DNA from: Arenicellales bacterium
Lineage (GTDB): Bacteria; Pseudomonadota; Gammaproteobacteria; Arenicellales; JBFEOO01
Reading direction: 5' to 3'
Assembly: GCA_041550555.1 (NCBI GenBank)
Contig: JBFEOO010000012.1
Location: 1,756 to 65,755 of the forward strand
DNA: 64,000 nucleotides
How positions within the stretch are numbered: the stretch's first letter is position 1; the number at the start of each line of letters is the position of its first letter. The position numbers and the translations under genes are program-made. Positions 3,838 to 28,258 of this stretch are shown piece after piece. The notes below the pieces were generated by a model, which saw only the letters and a list, made by a program, of their open reading frames with translations, was not told the DNA's origin and ran no database searches.

Positions 3838-5097
3838 TCACCGCCCGCGCTCGGCGGGCGTTGCCTGCACGGCGGCGATGGCTGCGATCCGCCGTCGCCG
3901 GATCTCCTCGCCGAGGGCCTTGCCCGTCGCCCCGTCGGCCGCCGCGGCGCGGCCGTCGACGGCGGCAGCGGCGGCCGCCATGCGCCGCAGCAGCTCGCCC
4001 TGCGGGTAGTCGATGTCTTCGCAGCCGAGCCGGCCGCGCGCGTCCGCCTCGCAGGCCAGCGCGAACGCGCGCAGCCGCGGTGGCCGCCGGAACGCGTCGA
4101 GCGCGCTCAGCAGCGCGTAGACCGTCGCCGGCCGCAGATCCGCAAGCCGGTGCATCTTGAGGTGGTGGCGGCACACCAGCAGCGCCAGCTCACGGAAGGC
4201 GGTCGGCGCCCGCAGACGGGCGCACAGGGCCTCGATCGGGGCCAGTCCGGTTTGCTCGTGTCCGCGATGACGCGGCCACTGCTCGGACGGCGTGAGCGCC
4301 TTGCCGAGATCGTGCACCAGCGCCGCGAAGCGCACCGTCGTCTCGGGCGAGAGCCGGGCGGCCTGATCGACGACCAGCAGGGTGTGGACGCCGGTGTCGA
4401 TCTCCGGGTGGACGGCGGGTGGCTGCGGGACGCCGAACAACGCCTCGATCTCCGGCAAGAGGCGGGCGAGGGCGCCGCAGGCGCGCAGCGCCTCGACGAA
4501 CGCGGACGGCGCCGGCTCGCCGAGGGCGCGATCGAGCTCCGCCCACACGCGTTCGGGCACCAGCGCGTCGACCTCGCCGTGATCGACCAGCTTGCACATC
4601 AGCGCAAGCGTCGCGGCGGCGATCGAGAAGCCTCTGTCGGCATAGCGGGCGGCGAAACGCGCCACGCGCAGCACCCGCACGGGGTCCTCGGCAAAGGCGG
4701 GCGAGACGTGCCGCAGCAGCCGCTCGCGGATGTCGGCGCGACCCCCGAAAGGGTCGATGAGGGTACCGTCGTCGGCCTCGGCCATGGCGTTGATGGTCAG
4801 GTCCCGACGCTGGAGATCTTCGTATAATGTGACCCCCGGATGGGCGTCGACGACGAATCCCCTGTAGCCGGCGCCGGTCTTGCGCTCGGTGCGGGCGAGT
4901 GCGTACTGCTCTCGGGTCTCGGGATGGAGAAAGACGGGAAAATCCTTGCCAACCGCCAGGAAGCCGCGTTTGCGGAGCTCCTCGGGTGTGGCCCCGATCA
5001 CCACCCAGTCGCGGTCGGTGACCGGCAGGCCGAGCAGGCGGTCCCGGACGGCGCCCCCGACGAGGTATTTCTCGAGGCCCGACTCCGGAGCGGCCAT
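3838..5097 (-). CDS. cca: Multifunctional CCA tRNA nucleotidyltransferase with HD domain
   Basis: [49 protein letters not shown]; start set at ATG 5097. Confidence 0.96.
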
Positions 5098-5165
5098 GGC
5101 GCGGGTCACCGCGCGCGCAAGCACGCCCCGGCCGGCGCCGCGCCTCGACGATCGCCTCGCGACGC

Positions 5166-6239
5166 GTGCGGACGGTGCCCGTGACGGCGGCGCTCGTGGG
5201 CGTGCTGGCACGATCGGCGGCGGCGCTGCTGGCGGGCGCCCTGGTGGGTTGCTCCAACGCGGGCTACTACGCGCAGTCGGTCGGCGGCCAGCTGGGTATT
5301 CTGACCAAGAGCCGGTCGGTGGACGCCGTGCTGGCGAACCCGGACACACCGGACGGGGTGAAGAGCAAGCTGCGCGCCGCCAAGCAGATCCGTGCCTTTG
5401 CCTCGCTTCATCTGGGACTGCCTGACAATAACAGCTACAAGCGCTACGCCGACGTCGGTCGTCGCTTCGTCGTCTGGAACGTATTTGCCACGCCGGCGTA
5501 TTCTTTGCAACCGCTCGAGTGGTGTTTTCCAGTGGCGGGCTGCGTCGCCTATCGGGGCTACTTCGACCGCGACGACGCCGAGGTCTTTGCCGAGGGCCTG
5601 CGCGCCGAGGGCCACGATGTCTACGTGGCGGGTATTCGCGCCTACTCCACGCTGGGCTGGTTCAGCGACCCGCTGCTCAACACGCTGATGAATGCCAGCG
5701 AGGAGCAGCTCGCCGGGTTCGTGTTCCACGAGCTCGCCCACCAGGTCGTCTACGTCAAGGGCGACACGACCTTCAACGAATCGTTCGCCACCGCCGTCGA
5801 GCAGGCGGGGGTGCGCCGCTGGCTGGCGCAGGCGGAGCGCGCGGGGCGGCTGCAGGGCTATCTCGAGCAGCTCGAGCGCGACGCCCGCATCGTTGAACTT
5901 CTGCTGGAGACGAAGCAGGCGTTGGGCCAGGTCTATGCGTCGGGACACGACCGCGACTGGCTGCAGCGCCGCAAGCAGGAGGCGTTCGCCGGGCTCAAGA
6001 GCGCCTACCGGCGTATCAGCGCCGAGTGGGACGGCTACGGCGGTTACCGAGGCTGGTTCGAGCAGCCGCTCAACAACGCGCATCTGGCCTCGGTAGGGAC
6101 GTACCACGAGCTGGTGCCGGCCTTTCTCGCTCTGCTCGAGCGTAACGGCGGGGACTTCGCGTCGTTCTACGAGGAGGTCCGGCGCATTGCCGCGCTGGCT
6201 CCCGAGCCGCGGCGCGAGGCGCTGCCGGCGTCGCCGTGA
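5166..6239 (+). CDS. Putative zinc aminopeptidase, probable lipoprotein
   Basis: LVGC lipobox-like signal, [31 protein letters not shown] and FNESFA (HEXXH...E). Confidence 0.8.
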
Positions 6240-6264
6240 GCCGCGCCGCCGCGCCGTAGCCCGC

Positions 6265-7221
6265 TCAGCGCCGCGCCCGTCGTCTGAGCTCGTCGATACG
6301 CCCGGCCGCCGCACTGACATAGCCGGGCACAACGGTTTCCATGGCGGTCGGCTCGGGGATCAGGAGTTCGGGGCAGGGGGCCGAGCAGACGCTGTCCTTC
6401 GACATCGACAGGTAGTTGTCGAGCGAGAACGGCTTGCCCGGCACGTACTCCATCACCATGGCCTGCCAGCGCGACAGCCGATCGGGAAGCTCGACGATGT
6501 ACCGCTTGACGCCCATGAGCTTGGCGACGTAGGAGACGATCTCGTGCAGCGTGTACTGCTGGGGCCCGCAGAGCTCGTAGCGGCGGCCGTAGGTGTCGGG
6601 CTCGCTCAGCGAGCGAACGAAAGCCTCCACGACGTCGCCGACGTACACCGGCTGAAAGCGGGTCTGCGCGCAGGCCAGCGGAAAGACCAGCGGGACGCTG
6701 CGCAGCAGCTTGGCGAAACGGTTGATGAAGCTGTCGTCGGGCCCGAAGATCACCGAGGGGCGGAAGCTGGTCACCGCGAAAGCGTCGCTCGCCGCGCCGT
6801 GAACCATGTCCTCGGCAATGCCTTTGGTGCGCAGGTAGTGACTCGGGCCGCTGGGGTCGGCATTGAGCGCGCTCATGTGAAGGAGCCGGCGCACGCCCTG
6901 CTCGTGGCACGCCTGCACCACATTGCGCGAGAGCGCCACGTGCGCCTGCTCGAAGCCGGCGCCGTCGTGACCGCGCTCGTTGAGGATGCCGACCAGATTG
7001 ATCGCCACGTCGGCGCCCTGGAAGAGCGGGTCGAGGGCCTTCGGGTCGTCGCTCTCGTACTCCACGAGGCTCAGCGTCGGCAGCACCAGCAGGTCGCGGT
7101 GGCGTTCGCGGTGGCGAGTCAGCACCTTCACCCGATGGCCGAGGGCGACCAGCCGGCGTGCAAGGTGGCGCCCGACGAAACCCGTGCCGCCGACGATGCA
7201 GACCTCGAGCGCACTCGTCAT
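6265..7221 (-). CDS. NAD(P)-binding epimerase, complex I NDUFA9 family
   Basis: GGTGFVG, INLVGIL, HMSALNA, SHYLRTKG, RPSVIFG, FQPVYVGDV. Confidence 0.88.
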   Translation of the reverse strand: MTSALEVCIVGGTGFVGRHLARRLVALGHRVKVLTRHRERHRDLLVLPTLSLVEYESDDPKALDPLFQGADVAINLVGILNERGHDGAGFEQAHVALSRNVVQACHEQGVRRLLHMSALNADPSGPSHYLRTKGIAEDMVHGAASDAFAVTSFRPSVIFGPDDSFINRFAKLLRSVPLVFPLACAQTRFQPVYVGDVVEAFVRSLSEPDTYGRRYELCGPQQYTLHEIVSYVAKLMGVKRYIVELPDRLSRWQAMVMEYVPGKPFSLDNYLSMSKDSVCSAPCPELLIPEPTAMETVVPGYVSAAAGRIDELRRRARR

Positions 7222-20029: not shown

Positions 20030-21309
20030 CTCGCGAACACGATCTCGCCGCCGATCAGGCAGTGCGTCACCTTACCGCGGAAGCGCCTGCCCAAGAACGG
20101 CGTGTTGCGGCCGCGGCTCACCATGCTGTCCGGCGTCAGCGTCCAGCGCCGCTCGGGGTCGAAAATGCAGATGTCGGCCGGCGCGCCCACGCCGAGCTGG
20201 CCCGACTCGAGACCGAGGACCCGCGCCGGCGCGGCGGTGATGGCGGCCAGTCCCTGCGCCAGGTCGATGACGCCGTCGTCGACGAGCTGCAGCGTCAGCG
20301 GCAGCAACGTCTCGAGGCCCGAGATGCCGGGTGCCGACTCGCTGAACGGGGCGAGCTTGGCGTCGAGGCCGTGGGGTTGGTGGTCGGAGCTGATGGCACA
20401 GACGGCGCCGCGCACGAGGCCTTCGCGCAGCGCGTCCCGATCCTGGCGGCGTCTGAGCGGTGGAAGCACGTGGCACTGGGTGTTGAAGAAGCCGATGTCG
20501 TGCTCGGTGAGATGCAGGTGGTGAGCCGTCACGTCCGCCGTTACCTCCAGGCCGCGCCGCTGTGCGTCGGCCACCATCGCCACGGACCGCGCGTTGGACA
20601 GCTGACAGAAGTGTGCGCGCACGCCCGTGGTCTCGACCAGCGCCAGCTCGCGCGCCACGGCGACAACTTCCGCCGCATCGGGTATCGCAGGCAGCCCCAG
20701 TCGTGTGCTGATCTCGCCCTCGTGGACGCAGCCGTTGCCTTGCAGCCAAGGATCGTGGGCGTGGATGAACACGGTCAGATCGAAGGTTGCGGCGTACTGC
20801 ATGGCACGGCGCATGACGAGGGTATTCTCCACGGGTCGCAGCGCATTGCTGACGCCCACGCAGCCGGCCTCCTTCAACGCCGCCATGTTGGTCAGCTCCG
20901 CGCCCTGAAGGCCCACGGTGAGCGCGCCCAGCGGATGTACGCGCGAGCGCCCGAGCTGCCGGGCGCGCTGCTGGATCATGTGTGCCATCGCCGGAGTGTC
21001 GATGACCGGATACGTGTCCGGCGGGCAGCAAATCGACGTGATGCCTGCGCCGACGGCCGCGGCCGTCTCGCTGTCCATGGTCGCCTTGTGCTCCTGACCC
21101 GGCTCGCGCAGTCGCGCGCGCAGGTCGATGATCCCCGGGCAGACGATCTTGCCGGTGGCGTCGAGGGAGCGTTCGGCGTGAAATCCCGCCGGCGCCGAGC
21201 CGACCGCGACGACTCTTCCGGCGTCGATGAACAGATCGAGGCGATCGTCGAGGGCGTTCGCCGGATCGATCAGGCGGCCGTTGCGGATCTCGACACCCAC
21301 CGGGATCAC
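20026..21309 (-). CDS. pyrC: Dihydroorotase-like subunit, probably the inactive PyrC' partner of ATCase
   Basis: DHOase motifs (REPG, SDHQPH, GISGLET, NTPF), but the metal-binding HxH reads RAR. Confidence 0.85.
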   Translation of the reverse strand: MIPVGVEIRNGRLIDPANALDDRLDLFIDAGRVVAVGSAPAGFHAERSLDATGKIVCPGIIDLRARLREPGQEHKATMDSETAAAVGAGITSICCPPDTYPVIDTPAMAHMIQQRARQLGRSRVHPLGALTVGLQGAELTNMAALKEAGCVGVSNALRPVENTLVMRRAMQYAATFDLTVFIHAHDPWLQGNGCVHEGEISTRLGLPAIPDAAEVVAVARELALVETTGVRAHFCQLSNARSVAMVADAQRRGLEVTADVTAHHLHLTEHDIGFFNTQCHVLPPLRRRQDRDALREGLVRGAVCAISSDHQPHGLDAKLAPFSESAPGISGLETLLPLTLQLVDDGVIDLAQGLAAITAAPARVLGLESGQLGVGAPADICIFDPERRWTLTPDSMVSRGRNTPFLGRRFRGKVTHCLIGGEIVFAS

Positions 21310-22281
21310 TCAGCGCGAAGCCGGGCCGCGCCCGCCCATGATCTGCGCCATGATCGACATGCGCACGGCGATGCCGTTCGTCACCTGGGGCAGGATGAGC
21401 GACCGCGGGCCGTCGGCCACGGAGGAGGCGATCTCGAGACCACGGTTGATCGGCCCGGGGTGCATGACGACGGCATCGGGCTTGGCGAACGCGAGCTTCT
21501 CGTCGGTCAGCCCATAGCGGTGGAAGAACTCCTGCTCGCTGGGGATGAGCTGACCCTCCATGCGCTCGAGCTGCAGCCGCAGCATGATGATCACATCGAC
21601 GCCGTCGAGTCCCGCGATCATGTCGGTGTGTGCGGTGACCCCGAGGCATTCGACCTCTGTGGGCAGCAGCGTCTTCGGCGCGATGACCCGCACTTCGCGC
21701 GCGCCCAGAACGTTGAGCGCTTGGATCTGCGAGCGGGCCACGCGGGAATGAAGAATGTCGCCGACGATGGCCACGGTGAGGTTCTCGAACCCCCCTTTGT
21801 GCTGACGGATGGTGAACATGTCGAGCATCGCCTGGGTCGGATGGGCATGGCGACCGTCACCGGCGTTGATGATGCCGACATGGGGCGGAACGTGCTGCGC
21901 GATGAGATACGCGGCGCCGCTGAACTCGTGGCGCACCACGAACAGGTCCGTATGCATGGCCTCGAGATTGCGGACCGTGTCCAGCACCGTCTCGCCCTTG
22001 GCGGTCGCCATGCGCGCGGGGTTCATGTTGATGACGTCGGCCGAGAGGCGCTTGGCGGCGATCTCAAAGGTGGTTCGCGTGCGCGTGCTGGTTTCGAAGA
22101 ACAAGTTGACGACGGTCTTGCCCCGCAGCAGGGGGACTTTCTTGATCTCCCGGGTCTCGAAGCCGATGAAGGACTCGGCGACATCGAGAATGTGGATCAA
22201 GGTCTCCCGCGGCAGCCCGTCGATGGTGAGAAAGTGCCGCAGCCGGCCGTCGGCGTCGAACTGTATCCCGGGCGCCGGCAT
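21310..22281 (-). CDS. pyrB: Aspartate carbamoyltransferase catalytic subunit
   Basis: [40 protein letters not shown]. Confidence 0.97.
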
Positions 22282-22286
22282 GCTTT

Positions 22287-22817
22287 TTATGCCGGGCGCC
22301 CGGATCCGCGATCGAGGATCACGAGGCGAAGCACCTCGGGGCCCTTGAGTTCGACGTACTGATGCGGGCCGAGGCTGAGATGTTGGCCGACGACGTCCGC
22401 CTGAATCGGTAGCTCGCGGCCATCGCGCTCAACGAGTACGGCGAGCAGCACCGAGGCCGGTCGTCCGTAGGAGAACAGCTCGTTCAGGGCCGCGCGCACG
22501 GTGCGCCCCGTGTGCAGCACGTCGTCGACAAGAATGACATGGCGATCCTCCACGTCCTCCGGCAGCGCGGACGCCCGTACCTGCGGGTTGAGACCGATCC
22601 GCGTGAAGTCGTCGCGGTAGAACGAGATGTCGATGGTGCCCAGCGGCACGCTCAAACCCAGACGGGCGTGCAGCACCTCGGCGAGCCACGCGCCTCCCGT
22701 GTGAATGCCGACCATGACCGGGTCCGGTCTCGCCTGGCGCTGCAGCTGCTGCACCATCCGCTCGAGCGGCTCGGCGACATCCACCGGCTCGAAGCCTCGC
22801 GGGGCCTCAGCGCTCAC
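22287..22817 (-). CDS. pyrR: PyrR pyrimidine regulatory protein / UPRTase
   Basis: [34 protein letters not shown]. Confidence 0.94.
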
Positions 22818-24767: not shown

Positions 24768-25152
24768 CTGAAGACCTTGGTCGTGAAAACCGAACTGCGG
24801 TGGCCCGCGCGACGGGCCGGGTTGTCATCCCCTGAACTTCGCTATCTGTACTTATATCCCATTGAGGCCAGATCGGCCAGCGATGGGCTCTTGTGATGAA
24901 TTTCCATTATATGCTATAAAAATCAAAATGTTTAGGGCATTACTATATAAACTACTTGAAAATCGGGCCGCAGATATACATCATAACGGGGTCGAGGGGC
25001 CCAAGCAGGGGGGCAAAGCACGCTGCGCCAGCAGCATTGCGGATGCTCGAGCGTTGCCGCGCAGATGACCCGATGGGCCAGGGTGACGGTGCTGCGCCGT
25101 GGGTCAACCGAGCTGCGACGCAGCACGGTGGACGTCTGACGGAGAACGGGCT

Positions 25153-25728
25153 ATGCGCGATGGCGCCCTCCATGCCTTGAATCTTTTGCTGCGGTGGCAG
25201 ACCCCGCCGGGCGCAGAGACCGAGACCGACTGCGACGACGCCGCGGAGGCCATTTGGCGCGGTGTCGGCTTCGATCTCGGCAGCCGCCATTTGGTGGCGC
25301 CGCTGGGCCAGGTGGCCGAGATCACCATTTGTGCGACGGCAGCGCCGTTGCCGCGTACGCCGGCGTGGGTGCGTGGTCTCGTGAGCGTTCATGGGAAGGG
25401 CCTCGCGGTGATCGACCTCAATGCGTTTCTCGGCGCCGAACCGCTCGCGACGGTCGATGGCGCACGGCTCTTGGTGATGCGATCCACCGGGCTGCAGGCC
25501 GCGCTGGTCGTCGAGCGGGTGCACGGCTTGCTCCGGTTCCCCGCCTCAGCGCGGCAAGCCGCGTCCGGGCAGGCGGGCACGGGCGCGGATCGTTACGTGA
25601 CGGCCTCGTTCGGTGGCGGGGCGGAGCGCTGGAGCGTCTTCGATCTCCGGCGCCTGGCGGCGGACGAGCGTTTTCGACGTGCCGGCCGGGCTGGCTCTGA
25701 TGCGCCGGCCGCGCGGCACGCCGCCTGA
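25153..25728 (+). CDS. CheW-domain protein, divergent PilI-like
   Basis: WRGVGFDLG..HLVAPLGQVAE, PRTPAWVRGL, VIDLNAFLG, LVVERVHG; GGAG RBS at 25141. Confidence 0.75.
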   Translation: MRDGALHALNLLLRWQTPPGAETETDCDDAAEAIWRGVGFDLGSRHLVAPLGQVAEITICATAAPLPRTPAWVRGLVSVHGKGLAVIDLNAFLGAEPLATVDGARLLVMRSTGLQAALVVERVHGLLRFPASARQAASGQAGTGADRYVTASFGGGAERWSVFDLRRLAADERFRRAGRAGSDAPAARHAA

Positions 25729-25816: not shown

Positions 25817-28258
25817 GTGCACAACAGTGTCGCGTTGCAGCAGCAGGTACGGGCCAGCCTGGGCGCATGGCTGCAGGAAGGCGGAAGCGTGCGCGCGCAC
25901 CAGGCGCTGTGCCGCACACTGAGCGCCATCGCCGATCTCGCCGACAGCCGTGGCGACCCTACCGTGCGTGGCGTCGCCGACGGCATCAATCAGATGCTGG
26001 ACATGTTCGCAGCCAAGTCGGGACGCCTCTCGGAGCAGGCACTCGGCACGCTCCGCCACTCGGTGGAGATACTGGCCGGCTGGTGCGAGCATCACGATGC
26101 CGACGAGGACGCTGGCGGGGCAATGCCGCAGCGCGGCGCTGCGCAGCTCGACGCCAACGGGCCAGGGGGCGGCGTGACCGACCCCCGGGCGATCCGCGAG
26201 TTCATCACCGATGCCTTGACACAGCTCAGGGCGATCCGTCTCTCCACGCAGCACATAGCGGCCGAGACCGGCCTCGGTGTCGATTTGCAGTGCCTCGAGC
26301 CCGCCCTCGCTCAGCTCCGACTCCATGCGGGCTCGCTCGAATTCGCCTCGATGGCCGAGGCGTGCCGGCAAGTGGAGCGCTCACTCGAGCTGAAGCGCCA
26401 GCGTGGGCGCGCCCTGGGCAGCACCGACCTGTCCCATTTGCGCCAGCTGCACGGGTTGATTGCGCGCGCGCTCGACGCTCTGTTGCGGGACGGCACGCTT
26501 GCCGGGACACCCGACACCGAGTTCGACCGCTTTGCCGAGGCGGTCGCCGCCTATGCCGAGGATCCGCCTGAGCGAGCAACGGAGGAGATCGGCGCGCTGC
26601 CGCACGATGCGGTTCCCGAGCCTGCCAACGACGAGGACGGCGAAGCGGATGGCGCCGGCGACGCCGCGCGGTGCGCTGCCGCAGCCGACGCCGAAAGCTT
26701 GCCGGCGCCGCTTGCCGAGTCGCCCCCGCTCGAAGCTGAGCAAGCGCCGCCATTACTGTCAGCCGATGGCCTGCCTTGCGAAGCGACCGGCTTCGTGAGC
26801 GCGAGCCTCGCCGGGCTCGGACCGGTGCCGCTGTCGCACCGGCTGTCGCACCTGCGCGATGTGCTGGACACGGCCGCGCACGCGCAGGGCAAGAGCGCCG
26901 TGCTCGACCTCGACGCGGATGTGGAGATCGACGAGGCGTTGCTCGGCGGCGCGATGGCGCCCCTCGAGAGCCTGCTCCGCTGTGCCGTCGCCGCGATCGA
27001 GCCCGCATCGCAGAGAACGTCGCTGGGTAAGCCGGCCAGCGCTCGCCTGACGCTCGGGGGACGCACGACCGGCCGTCAGCTGCACATCGAATGCCGGCAC
27101 GACGGCGCCGGCCTCGATGTAGCGGCCATGCATTCCAAGGCGATGAAGGCCGGGCTGATTCCGCGGCAGGCGACCATCGGCCCCGAGGACCTGGTGCGGC
27201 TCTTGCTGACGCCCGGCGTCGGCAGCGCGTCGATGGCGGGGTGGCCCGAAGGCGCTGCGTTTCGGGCCGCGCTCGGCGCCGCCCTCGAGGACATCGAGAC
27301 CCTCGGTGGCTCATTGGGCCTCGTCGGCCGTGACCGGGGCGAGCAAGGCATCGAGGTCGTGCTGCCCGCGCAGCTGCCGCTGCTGCACGGCATGCTGGTG
27401 CGGCTCGGCGCCCAGCATTACCTGCTGCCGGCGGCGGCGGTGCGTGAGGTGATCGCGCCGGCGACAGCGGGGGTGGAGCGGTCGGAGCCCGACGATGAGC
27501 CCTGGATCCGCTACCGCGAGCAACGCCACCCGATGTTGGATCTATTTCGCGAGCTGGAGCTGGAGCGCCCCGGCGCCGATCCCGACCGTGAAGCCATCGT
27601 CATCGTAGCGCTCGACGGCGTCGAGATCGGCGTCGCCGTCGACGAGGTGCTGGGTCGGCGGGATGTCGTATTCCAGCCTCTGCAGCCGCCCGTCGCAGAT
27701 CTTGTCGGCGTGGCCGGGGCGGCGTGCGTCAACGGCGCCGGACTGGCGCTGATCATCGACGTCGGCGCGCTGTGGGAGCGCCACCACCCGCGTGCGTCGC
27801 TGACGTCGGGCGCCGCTGAGGGCGAAGAGGCGTCGCATGACGCGCCGCAATCGGGTGTGATCATGGTCGTCGACGACTCGCTCACGGTGCGCAAGGTCAC
27901 CGGGCGCAGTCTGCGCAAGCACGGCCTGGAGGTGGTGCTGGCCAAGGACGGCGTCGACGCCATCGAAAAGCTCAGGGAGAACCGGCCGGACGTCATGCTG
28001 GTGGATATCGAGATGCCGAGAATGGACGGCTACGAGTTGACCCGTCGCATTCGGTCGGATCCGCTCACGCGCACGATTCCGATTGTCATCATCACCTCCC
28101 GCTCCGGAACTCGGCTGCGCGACAAGGCGATGCAGCTCGGTGCCGAGGCGTTCCTCAGCAAGCCCTACGGTGAGGAAGACCTGATCGAGACCGTCAGGCA
28201 GATGCTGGCGGCGAGCGCCCTTGCCTGCGGGCACTCGCGTGCCGGTGTCGATCACTAG
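25817..28258 (+). CDS. ChpA/CheA-like hybrid protein (two Hpt-like domains, degenerate HATPase, CheW, REC); probable pseudokinase
   Basis: Domain order matches ChpA; REC conserved (VVDDS, DIEMPRMDG, ITS, KPY); kinase boxes degenerate. Confidence 0.8.
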   Translation: MHNSVALQQQVRASLGAWLQEGGSVRAHQALCRTLSAIADLADSRGDPTVRGVADGINQMLDMFAAKSGRLSEQALGTLRHSVEILAGWCEHHDADEDAGGAMPQRGAAQLDANGPGGGVTDPRAIREFITDALTQLRAIRLSTQHIAAETGLGVDLQCLEPALAQLRLHAGSLEFASMAEACRQVERSLELKRQRGRALGSTDLSHLRQLHGLIARALDALLRDGTLAGTPDTEFDRFAEAVAAYAEDPPERATEEIGALPHDAVPEPANDEDGEADGAGDAARCAAAADAESLPAPLAESPPLEAEQAPPLLSADGLPCEATGFVSASLAGLGPVPLSHRLSHLRDVLDTAAHAQGKSAVLDLDADVEIDEALLGGAMAPLESLLRCAVAAIEPASQRTSLGKPASARLTLGGRTTGRQLHIECRHDGAGLDVAAMHSKAMKAGLIPRQATIGPEDLVRLLLTPGVGSASMAGWPEGAAFRAALGAALEDIETLGGSLGLVGRDRGEQGIEVVLPAQLPLLHGMLVRLGAQHYLLPAAAVREVIAPATAGVERSEPDDEPWIRYREQRHPMLDLFRELELERPGADPDREAIVIVALDGVEIGVAVDEVLGRRDVVFQPLQPPVADLVGVAGAACVNGAGLALIIDVGALWERHHPRASLTSGAAEGEEASHDAPQSGVIMVVDDSLTVRKVTGRSLRKHGLEVVLAKDGVDAIEKLRENRPDVMLVDIEMPRMDGYELTRRIRSDPLTRTIPIVIITSRSGTRLRDKAMQLGAEAFLSKPYGEEDLIETVRQMLAASALACGHSRAGVDH

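Follow-up and report, generated by a model that had tools for sequence, protein, structure and literature searches.

A reduced ChpA-like protein of an uncultured Arenicellales bacterium as a putative maintained pseudokinase with an intact receiver domain

The stretch of DNA analyzed here (the window) comprises 64,000 nucleotides of an Arenicellales bacterium (GenBank assembly GCA_041550555.1) and carries at 25817..28258 (+) a chpA-like gene, whose product appears to be a pseudokinase related to ChpA, the CheA-type histidine kinase of the Pil-Chp system. The open reading frame (ORF) spans 813 codons, in agreement with the initial annotation of this DNA, and begins with a GTG that has GAGG 7 nt upstream. 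A pilI-like cheW gene precedes it at 25153..25728 (+), encoding 191 amino acids (aa; Pfam CheW, E 2e-18) from an ATG at 25153 with GGAGAA upstream. The spacing between the two genes is 89 bp and they probably form one operon. The encoded CheW protein is 32% identical to PilI of a relative (genome G028) and 45-47% identical to the products of cheW at two orthologous metagenomic loci introduced below, L016 and L017. A promoter-like site, recognized by consensus match alone (2 sites versus 0.1 expected), was located at 24956..24984 (+) in the AT-rich gap that separates tonB from cheW. The region 24830-24990 forms a sharply AT-rich island between these divergent genes, with promoter-like sites on both strands.

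The gene order around the locus is tonB(-), cheW, chpA-like, bioA(-), with tonB and bioA assigned by Pfam. Upstream lie pilT, pilU, pyrC', pyrB, pyrR, ruvX, yqgE, and tonB(-), most of them named by eye from their translations, and bioA(-) is followed downstream by a suhB-like gene and tkt, both also named by eye. The order pilT-pilU-pyrC'-pyrB-pyrR-ruvX-yqgE-tonB would match the arrangement of Pseudomonas aeruginosa PA0395-PA0413. The relative G028, a member of the same taxonomic order, carries gshB, gshA, pilG, pilH, pilI, pilJ, chpA (1839 aa), and bioA(-). Because the window gene occupies the slot after a pilI-like cheW and before bioA(-), as in G028, it is the positional ortholog of chpA. 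ChpA frames measured 1750-2300 aa in the closely examined relatives and about 1540-2560 aa over all relatives found. The open frame by itself is weak evidence here, since the 70% G+C window yields long chance frames, including a 766-codon frame at 20062-22362 (+) antisense to pyrB/pyrC' and many other long spurious ones.

An exhaustive HMMER search, made without the receiver (REC) domain against 1.84 billion representatives, returned the protein itself and a 760-aa protein (P0112; E 2.5e-60), followed by ordinary CheA/ChpA proteins; the short-form family is thus rare, with 2 clusters at E < 1e-40. A word-indexed protein search yielded mostly receivers of hybrid kinases; beyond these it recovered only the identical cluster and a ChpA-like protein of 28% identity. 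Scanning contigs of species genomes with the N-terminal alignment produced 158 pattern matches and no relative, in a collection from which the window's own and near genomes may be excluded. Metagenome contigs contained four orthologous loci, three of them independent, which fall into two clades. Locus L014 encodes a protein 92% identical to that of the window, without indels and with its 5' end cut by the contig end; L015 belongs to the L014 population (nucleotide identity 98-100%), is broken at NN gaps only, and is not independent. The 769-aa protein of L016 and the 760-aa protein of L017, which is P0112, are 84% identical to each other and each 41% identical to the window protein. These short-form orthologs have Pfam matches to CheW and REC alone and share the synteny yqgE, tonB(-), cheW, chpA-like, bioA(-). 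None contains a frameshift or stop, and start, stop region, and frame are common to the three independent orthologs. Between the clades, bioA is 80% identical and the chpA-like gene 42%. At the 3' end, comparison of L014:2400-2423 with window positions 28235-28258 shows that the L014 frame is 8 codons longer and stops 2 bp before the convergent bioA stop; the C-terminal tail beyond the receiver is therefore not conserved.

The slot held by pilJ in G028 forms a reductive series among these loci, with a full frame in L017, two ends in L016, and 89 bp in the window, while cheW and the chpA-like gene are intact in all. In L017 these two genes flank a 709-aa frame (5049-7178, +) with 28% identity to the PilJ of G028 (E 2e-36); it has no Pfam methyl-accepting chemotaxis protein (MCP) match and a degenerate hairpin-tip motif. 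This frame could represent a pseudo-receptor that has stayed open next to the pseudokinase, or else a gene at an early stage of decay. In L016 (7450-8040), an internal deletion of about 1.6 kb has left roughly the first 430 bp and the last 150 bp of the pilJ-like gene seen in L017. DNA nearly identical to the window occurs in marine and sediment metagenomes from 11 studies. Contigs of four runs (three RNA libraries, two studies) differed from it at 0-1 positions each and had no small insertions or deletions, and the intact frame is the form of the population. One X16 contig skips 26211-27384 (1172 bases, with 5 other letters between). Contig holes, in X16 over 24881-24996 (intergenic) and in X17 over 24948-25567 and several later stretches, prove nothing.

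The 813-aa protein has two Pfam matches, one to CheW at aa 525-653 (E 9e-20) and one to Response_reg at aa 682-793 (E 3e-29), with no Hpt, H-kinase_dim, or HATPase_c domain at E ≤ 0.1. Its P4 region is nevertheless homologous to CheA, as the NCBIfam CheA model still aligned over aa 347-654 and Thermotoga maritima CheA aligned at E 6e-28. AlphaFold2, run on a 60-sequence alignment (A4), gave a model with a mean predicted local distance difference test (pLDDT) score of 77.5, comprising a four-helix bundle (domain 1, aa 4-98; pLDDT 78-93), a five-helix domain (domain 2, aa 123-248; pLDDT 54-84), a disordered stretch at aa 253-332 where P3 should be (pLDDT < 50), P4 (aa 336-520; pLDDT 86-96), a confident P5 (aa 521-656), and REC (aa 681-803; pLDDT 97). 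Foldseek matched CheA P4-P5 at E 1e-22, P4 alone to that of T. maritima CheA at a template modeling (TM) score of 0.76-0.78, and receivers at TM 0.95. The structure predictions thus support the folds of P4, P5, and REC and contain no P3. Folded separately, the N-terminal region (aa 1-250) resembled CheA P1 (TM 0.76-0.86; root mean square deviation 1.7-3.0 Å), a match with weak E-values (8e-3 to 0.3) that covers either domain 1 or domain 2.

The P4-like domain (aa 336-520; 26822..27376, +) has the CheA catalytic fold without its ATP-binding motifs. In the HMMER alignment to CheA, the canonical N box HLLRNAIDHG reads SLLRCAVA-A in the window (about 26966-27001), and the L016/L017 clade has H..RH / H..HH in place of the canonical H..RN..DHG. 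The G1 motif DDGRG has become HDGAG (about 27098), with His at the first G1 position in all four short forms; the F box PGFST reads PGVGS in the window and PGLAR in L016/L017, and the G2 motif GRGVG is gone from the window and from L016/L017. Both this alignment and the 60-sequence A4 bear out the changes initially reported for these four motifs. In A4, the N-box residues H/R/N/H/G, the G1 Asp, the F-box Ser, and the G2 residues R/G/G are kept in 56 of 56 other CheA/ChpA homologs and in none of the 4 short forms. As the other homologs all retain the motifs and the short forms alone do not, the losses exceed chance. In CheA P4, the N-box Asn binds Mg2+, the G1 Asp binds adenine, and G2 forms the glycine lid. 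With no phospho-His, P3, Mg-binding Asn, adenine-binding Asp, or glycine lid, the chpA-like protein is predicted neither to autophosphorylate nor to relay phosphate. The identity of P4 between the short form and canonical ChpAs was 26-31%, compared with 55-60% among canonical ChpAs.

Two helical modules precede the catalytic region. Domain 1 (aa 4-98; 25826..26110, +), termed "Hpt-like 1" in the initial annotation (LCRTLSAIADLA), is a four-helix module without the His, carrying Ser36 where an Hpt would have it. Five of the nine canonical ChpAs examined contain a matching module, at aa ~600-690 or ~734-814 (E 3e-11 to 2e-6), in which the His position is occupied by R, R, R, R, and A; all four short forms have Ser. 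The canonical module has no Pfam Hpt match. Since the canonical counterparts had no His there either, domain 1 gives no evidence of degeneration, and its description as a decayed Hpt was rejected. It is the best-kept part of the protein after REC (54% identical between the clades). In canonical ChpAs, this His-less helical module carries the motif 'L..WL.D ... AD.R ... NNLLDIV' and precedes two Hpt domains. An example, L011:11534-11866 (-), corresponds to aa 590-700 of the ChpA of genome G006 and is under strong constraint (omega 0.075). The canonical module could be a docking element of ChpA that has so far gone undescribed.

Domain 2 (aa 123-248; 26183..26560, +; "Hpt-like 2", LEPALAQLRLHAG) does correspond to a degenerate Hpt, as first described. 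It matched the Hpt at aa 849-962 of the G006 ChpA by BLASTP (E 4e-10), and Ala165 (Thr in L016/L017) aligns with the phospho-His of that domain. The G006 domain itself matches Pfam Hpt at E 5e-10, compared with E 0.54 for domain 2 alone. No His is invariant across the four orthologs within aa 1-335; His170 (LRLHAG) is present in the window and L014 and is Trp in L016/L017. These comparisons with canonical ChpA were taken from a separate alignment (A5), as the MAFFT alignment A4 paired domains 1 and 2 with the wrong Hpt. Aligned in this way, the short form reads as ChpA minus three pieces: the first ~590 residues, the Hpt between the His-less module and the next Hpt, and everything that lies between that Hpt and P4, P3 included. 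A predicted complex of domain 1 (aa 1-100) and REC (aa 676-805) scored 0.00, which is no evidence either way. Between domain 2 and P4, an acidic, Ala/Pro-rich linker (aa 253-332; 26573..26812, +) replaces further Hpt domains and P3. The earlier description of this replacement agrees with the missing H-kinase_dim match and the predicted disorder. P3 was found in four of the five canonical homologs scanned (P0113, P0114, P0117, and P0118) and not in P0003. The linker differs between the clades by many indels, and 68 of its 95 positions align.

The C-terminal half consists of the CheW-like P5 (aa 521-656; 27377..27784, +; Pfam CheW, E 9e-20), which belongs to the matched CheA P4-P5 fold, and the receiver (aa 681-803; 27857..28225, +; Pfam, E 3e-29). 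P5, like P4, shows about half the similarity to canonical ChpAs that these share mutually. Between clades, P4 and P5 are 33-35% identical, and the alignment covers 183 of 185 positions in P4 and all 135 in P5. REC has an intact phospho-acceptor pocket, in which D686, D687, D730, T760, and K782 can be aligned with the PleD receiver and do not vary among the four orthologs; the acidic pair, phospho-Asp, T/S, and KP reported at first sight are therefore confirmed. REC is 76% identical between clades; its identity to the RECs of canonical ChpAs is 61-64%, against 64-69% among the latter. Set beside those of P4, these values support the uneven conservation noted initially.

Selection was examined with dN/dS (omega) estimated by the Nei-Gojobori method and Fisher tests for omega < 1, for the pairs window/L014, L016/L017, and the canonical ChpAs of G006 and G019. 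Over the whole gene, omega was 0.40 for window/L014 (60.5 synonymous and 69.5 nonsynonymous changes; p 5e-7), 0.31 for L016/L017 (p 7e-21), and 0.135 for G006/G019. Per-domain values, given in this order of pairs, were 0.10, 0.25, and 0.075 for domain 1 and the canonical module; 0.34, 0.41, and 0.117 for domain 2 and the canonical Hpt; 0.36, 0.40, and 0.035 for P4; 0.48, 0.32, and 0.089 for P5; and 0.41 (5 nonsynonymous, 4 synonymous), 0.023 (2 nonsynonymous, 23 synonymous), and 0.049 for REC. The linker had omega of 0.52 in window/L014 and 0.51 in L016/L017, and the PilI-like cheW 0.42 in L016/L017. As neighboring controls, bioA (0.11) and the suhB-like gene (0.09) were used for window/L014, and tonB (0.19), yqgE (0.06), and bioA (0.10) for L016/L017. 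Neutrality was rejected for P4 in both short-form pairs (p 0.008 in window/L014 and 2e-4 in L016/L017) and, in L016/L017, for P5 (p 1e-4), REC (p 2e-13), domain 1, domain 2, and cheW; P4, P5, and the separate cheW gene had p 1e-4 to 3e-4 in that pair.

REC is thus held at canonical-level constraint in the better-sampled pair, L016/L017, and the His-less module comes next. P4-like and P5 persist as folded parts under constraint that is relaxed 4-10 times but not neutral. The initial annotation had proposed a catalytically dead protein rather than random decay. The same losses recur at 41% identity without frameshifts and with whole-gene omega of 0.31-0.40, which supports a dead but retained protein. 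Kinase function appears to have been lost before the two clades split. Overall, the motif losses, the linker, and the receiver stand as first described, and the decayed "Hpt-like 1" does not.

Little else of the signaling system was found in the genome, whose assembly is 92.6% complete in 155 contigs. This assembly contains two CheW domains, both in the chpA-like locus, and no MCPsignal domain (Pfam) or PilJ-like match. It has no PilG or PilH ortholog, the best PilG match being the REC of the 813-aa protein itself (36%), and PilK and ChpB were likewise not found in it. Genes of the pilus are present, with PilM in the genome (E 3e-135) and pilT and pilU in the window. On contig C121, a 745-aa hybrid histidine kinase (L018:212-2449, -; PAS, HisKA, HATPase, REC, by eye) lies beside a small Hpt protein cut by the contig end (L018:2-205, -). 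This Hpt is the only Pfam Hpt found elsewhere in the genome, and nothing ties C121 to the chpA-like gene; the kinase and Hpt are a possible, wholly unlinked, candidate phosphodonor. Contig C112 carries a lone CheR-type methyltransferase (L019:3567-4607, +) beside a zinc alcohol dehydrogenase and DsbB, with no chemosensory cluster.

On balance we favor, without strong conviction, the view that the protein is a maintained pseudokinase, a reduced descendant of ChpA whose working part is the receiver, because the frame is kept, the gene is under purifying selection, REC is at canonical constraint, and kinase function was apparently lost before the clades split. The protein combines loss of catalytic residues with purifying selection, the marks of a histidine pseudokinase, its inactivity being judged from sequence. 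Several points weigh against this view. As REC is C-terminal, selection to translate REC alone would hold the upstream frame open. P4, P5, domain 2, and the PilI-like CheW, at omega 0.3-0.5, evolve at 4-10 times the canonical values and may be on the way out, and REC itself has omega of 0.41 in window/L014, though from only nine changes. The AlphaFold2 confidence in P4 and P5 leans on an alignment made up mostly of canonical kinases. PilG, PilH, and PilJ of the signaling system have already been lost one by one. The genome is assembled in 155 contigs, and missing genes may lie in the unassembled 7%. The contigs from RNA libraries are no proof of transcription, since such libraries can contain DNA, and no phosphodonor, binding partner, or output was identified for the protein.

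The first of these points leads to a real, if minority, possibility, namely that only the receiver works, perhaps with the N-terminal module, and that P4, P5, domain 2, and the PilI-like CheW are passengers, which stay in frame as any upstream stop or frameshift kills the receiver and stay foldable as misfolded leaders are harmful. This would account for omega of 0.32-0.48 in P4/P5 (canonical 0.035 and 0.089) beside 0.023 for REC in L016/L017, for P4/P5 identity to canonical ChpAs at about half the canonical-canonical level when that of REC is equal, and for a receptor for P5/CheW binding that is degenerate, deleted, or absent. It sits less well with the rejection of neutrality for P4, P5, and cheW in L016/L017 and for P4 in window/L014, and translation of REC cannot protect cheW, which is a separate cistron. 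P4 and P5 are also nearly free of indels between clades where the linkers have them, and a deletion fusing the start to REC would be expected in roughly the time of the 20% bioA divergence. That the gene is instead a slowly decaying pseudogene, the leftover of a lost Pil-Chp system held open by the accident of 70% G+C, seems quite unlikely. Long chance frames do occur in the window, the rest of the system is gone, constraint is relaxed, and the family is rare, with no relative matched among species genomes; against this, three independent orthologs in two clades keep the same frame at 41% identity, neutrality is rejected over the whole gene (p 5e-7 and 7e-21), REC reaches omega of 0.023 with its five active-site residues invariant, and four runs contain no small indel variants. 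Finally, we regard it as highly improbable that the protein is an active kinase with an unorthodox ATP site that autophosphorylates another residue such as His170. The kept P4 fold, the His at the G1 position of all four orthologs, and His170 in the window and L014 would be its basis, but the N-box Asn, G1 Asp, and G2 glycines, which make up all residue classes known to bind Mg-ATP in the GHKL fold, are replaced, His170 is Trp in L016/L017 with no invariant His in aa 1-335, and no dimerization domain is left to present a substrate helix.

If the protein is a maintained pseudokinase, its receiver would still be phosphorylated, as suggested by the invariant acceptor pocket. The phosphate donor would then lie outside the protein, in another phosphorelay or a small molecule such as acetyl phosphate. 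Together with the neighboring PilI-like CheW, the protein could act as a receiver and adaptor of the CheV type (CheW-like plus REC), a role that would need no chemoreceptor; the scaffold role and the link to the pilus are conjectures of the same kind. We further suggest, as a somewhat unlikely extension, that the ChpA receiver has a job of its own, independent of the ChpA kinase, the chemoreceptor, and PilG/PilH, and is fed by a foreign phosphorelay (e.g., that on C121). The dead P4-P5, the His-less module, and the PilI-like CheW would then form a docking platform, making the protein a CheA-class counterpart of the pseudokinase DivL, possibly steering PilT/PilU 6 kb upstream.

These observations bear on ChpA, the least understood CheA-type kinase, for which a review (PMC12632253) leaves as an open question why it has nonphosphorylatable Xpt modules and an essential cis receiver. 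According to this review, only five out of nine Xpt domains in ChpA undergo phosphorylation, the rest may serve as scaffolds for binding, and twitching requires the cis receiver (PMC12632253). The lineage described here is a natural deletion experiment: it has lost every catalytic part, neither the receptor nor either of the two response regulators turned up in its assembly, and the receiver is under full constraint. The receiver and one His-less module, with constraint close behind, point to functions independent of the phosphorelay from ChpA itself, within the limits of a rare family in an uncultured organism whose function is inferred only.

Among known systems, ChpA/PilL of the Pil-Chp system in P. 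aeruginosa and other Gammaproteobacteria is closest, sharing the C-terminal order P4-P5-REC with a REC 61-64% identical, the same His-less module, and a homolog of one Hpt of the canonical protein. Of the features of the ChpA class, P5 is present, whereas the Hpt His, P3, and the P4 motif boxes are absent. A REC domain is there, and the position between a pilI-like cheW and bioA is that seen in G028, but pilG, pilH, and pilJ are missing from the locus and were not found in the genome. Canonical ChpA differs in its length (1750-2300 versus 813 aa); the short form is without a phosphorylatable Hpt, P3, or a working ATP pocket. CheV resembles the conserved C-terminal half, having a CheW-like domain and then a receiver, and here a separate CheW adjoins. 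CheV has no P4-like or Hpt-like domains and works in receptor arrays, where it is phosphorylated by CheA. In our case CheW and REC are two of the five domains of a larger protein, the genome yielded neither an MCP nor a CheA, and no CheV-specific family model was among the best 25 of 101 NCBIfam matches. CheA3 of Rhodobacter sphaeroides, a CheA-family protein unable to autophosphorylate, consists of P1 and P5 only and receives its phosphate in trans from CheA4. The N-terminal model has the P1 structure of CheA3 (3kyi/3kyj) among its fold matches. CheA3 has lost P4 and kept the phosphorylatable His, whereas the chpA-like protein retains P4 as a dead fold and no longer has the His.

A full-text search, with subscription journals mostly outside its coverage, returned no literature on a natural CheA/ChpA pseudokinase. 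Bacterial histidine pseudokinases reported to be retained without catalysis include Caulobacter DivL (PMC4211667) and Streptomyces PsmA (PMC12963549), and the catalytic domain of DivL is reported to have been reused to read the state of a response regulator (PMC4211667). The chpA-like protein would add a CheA-class example to this short list. DivL and PsmA are of the HisKA type, whereas the protein described here belongs to the CheA class, has lost its dimerization domain, and carries a receiver of its own.

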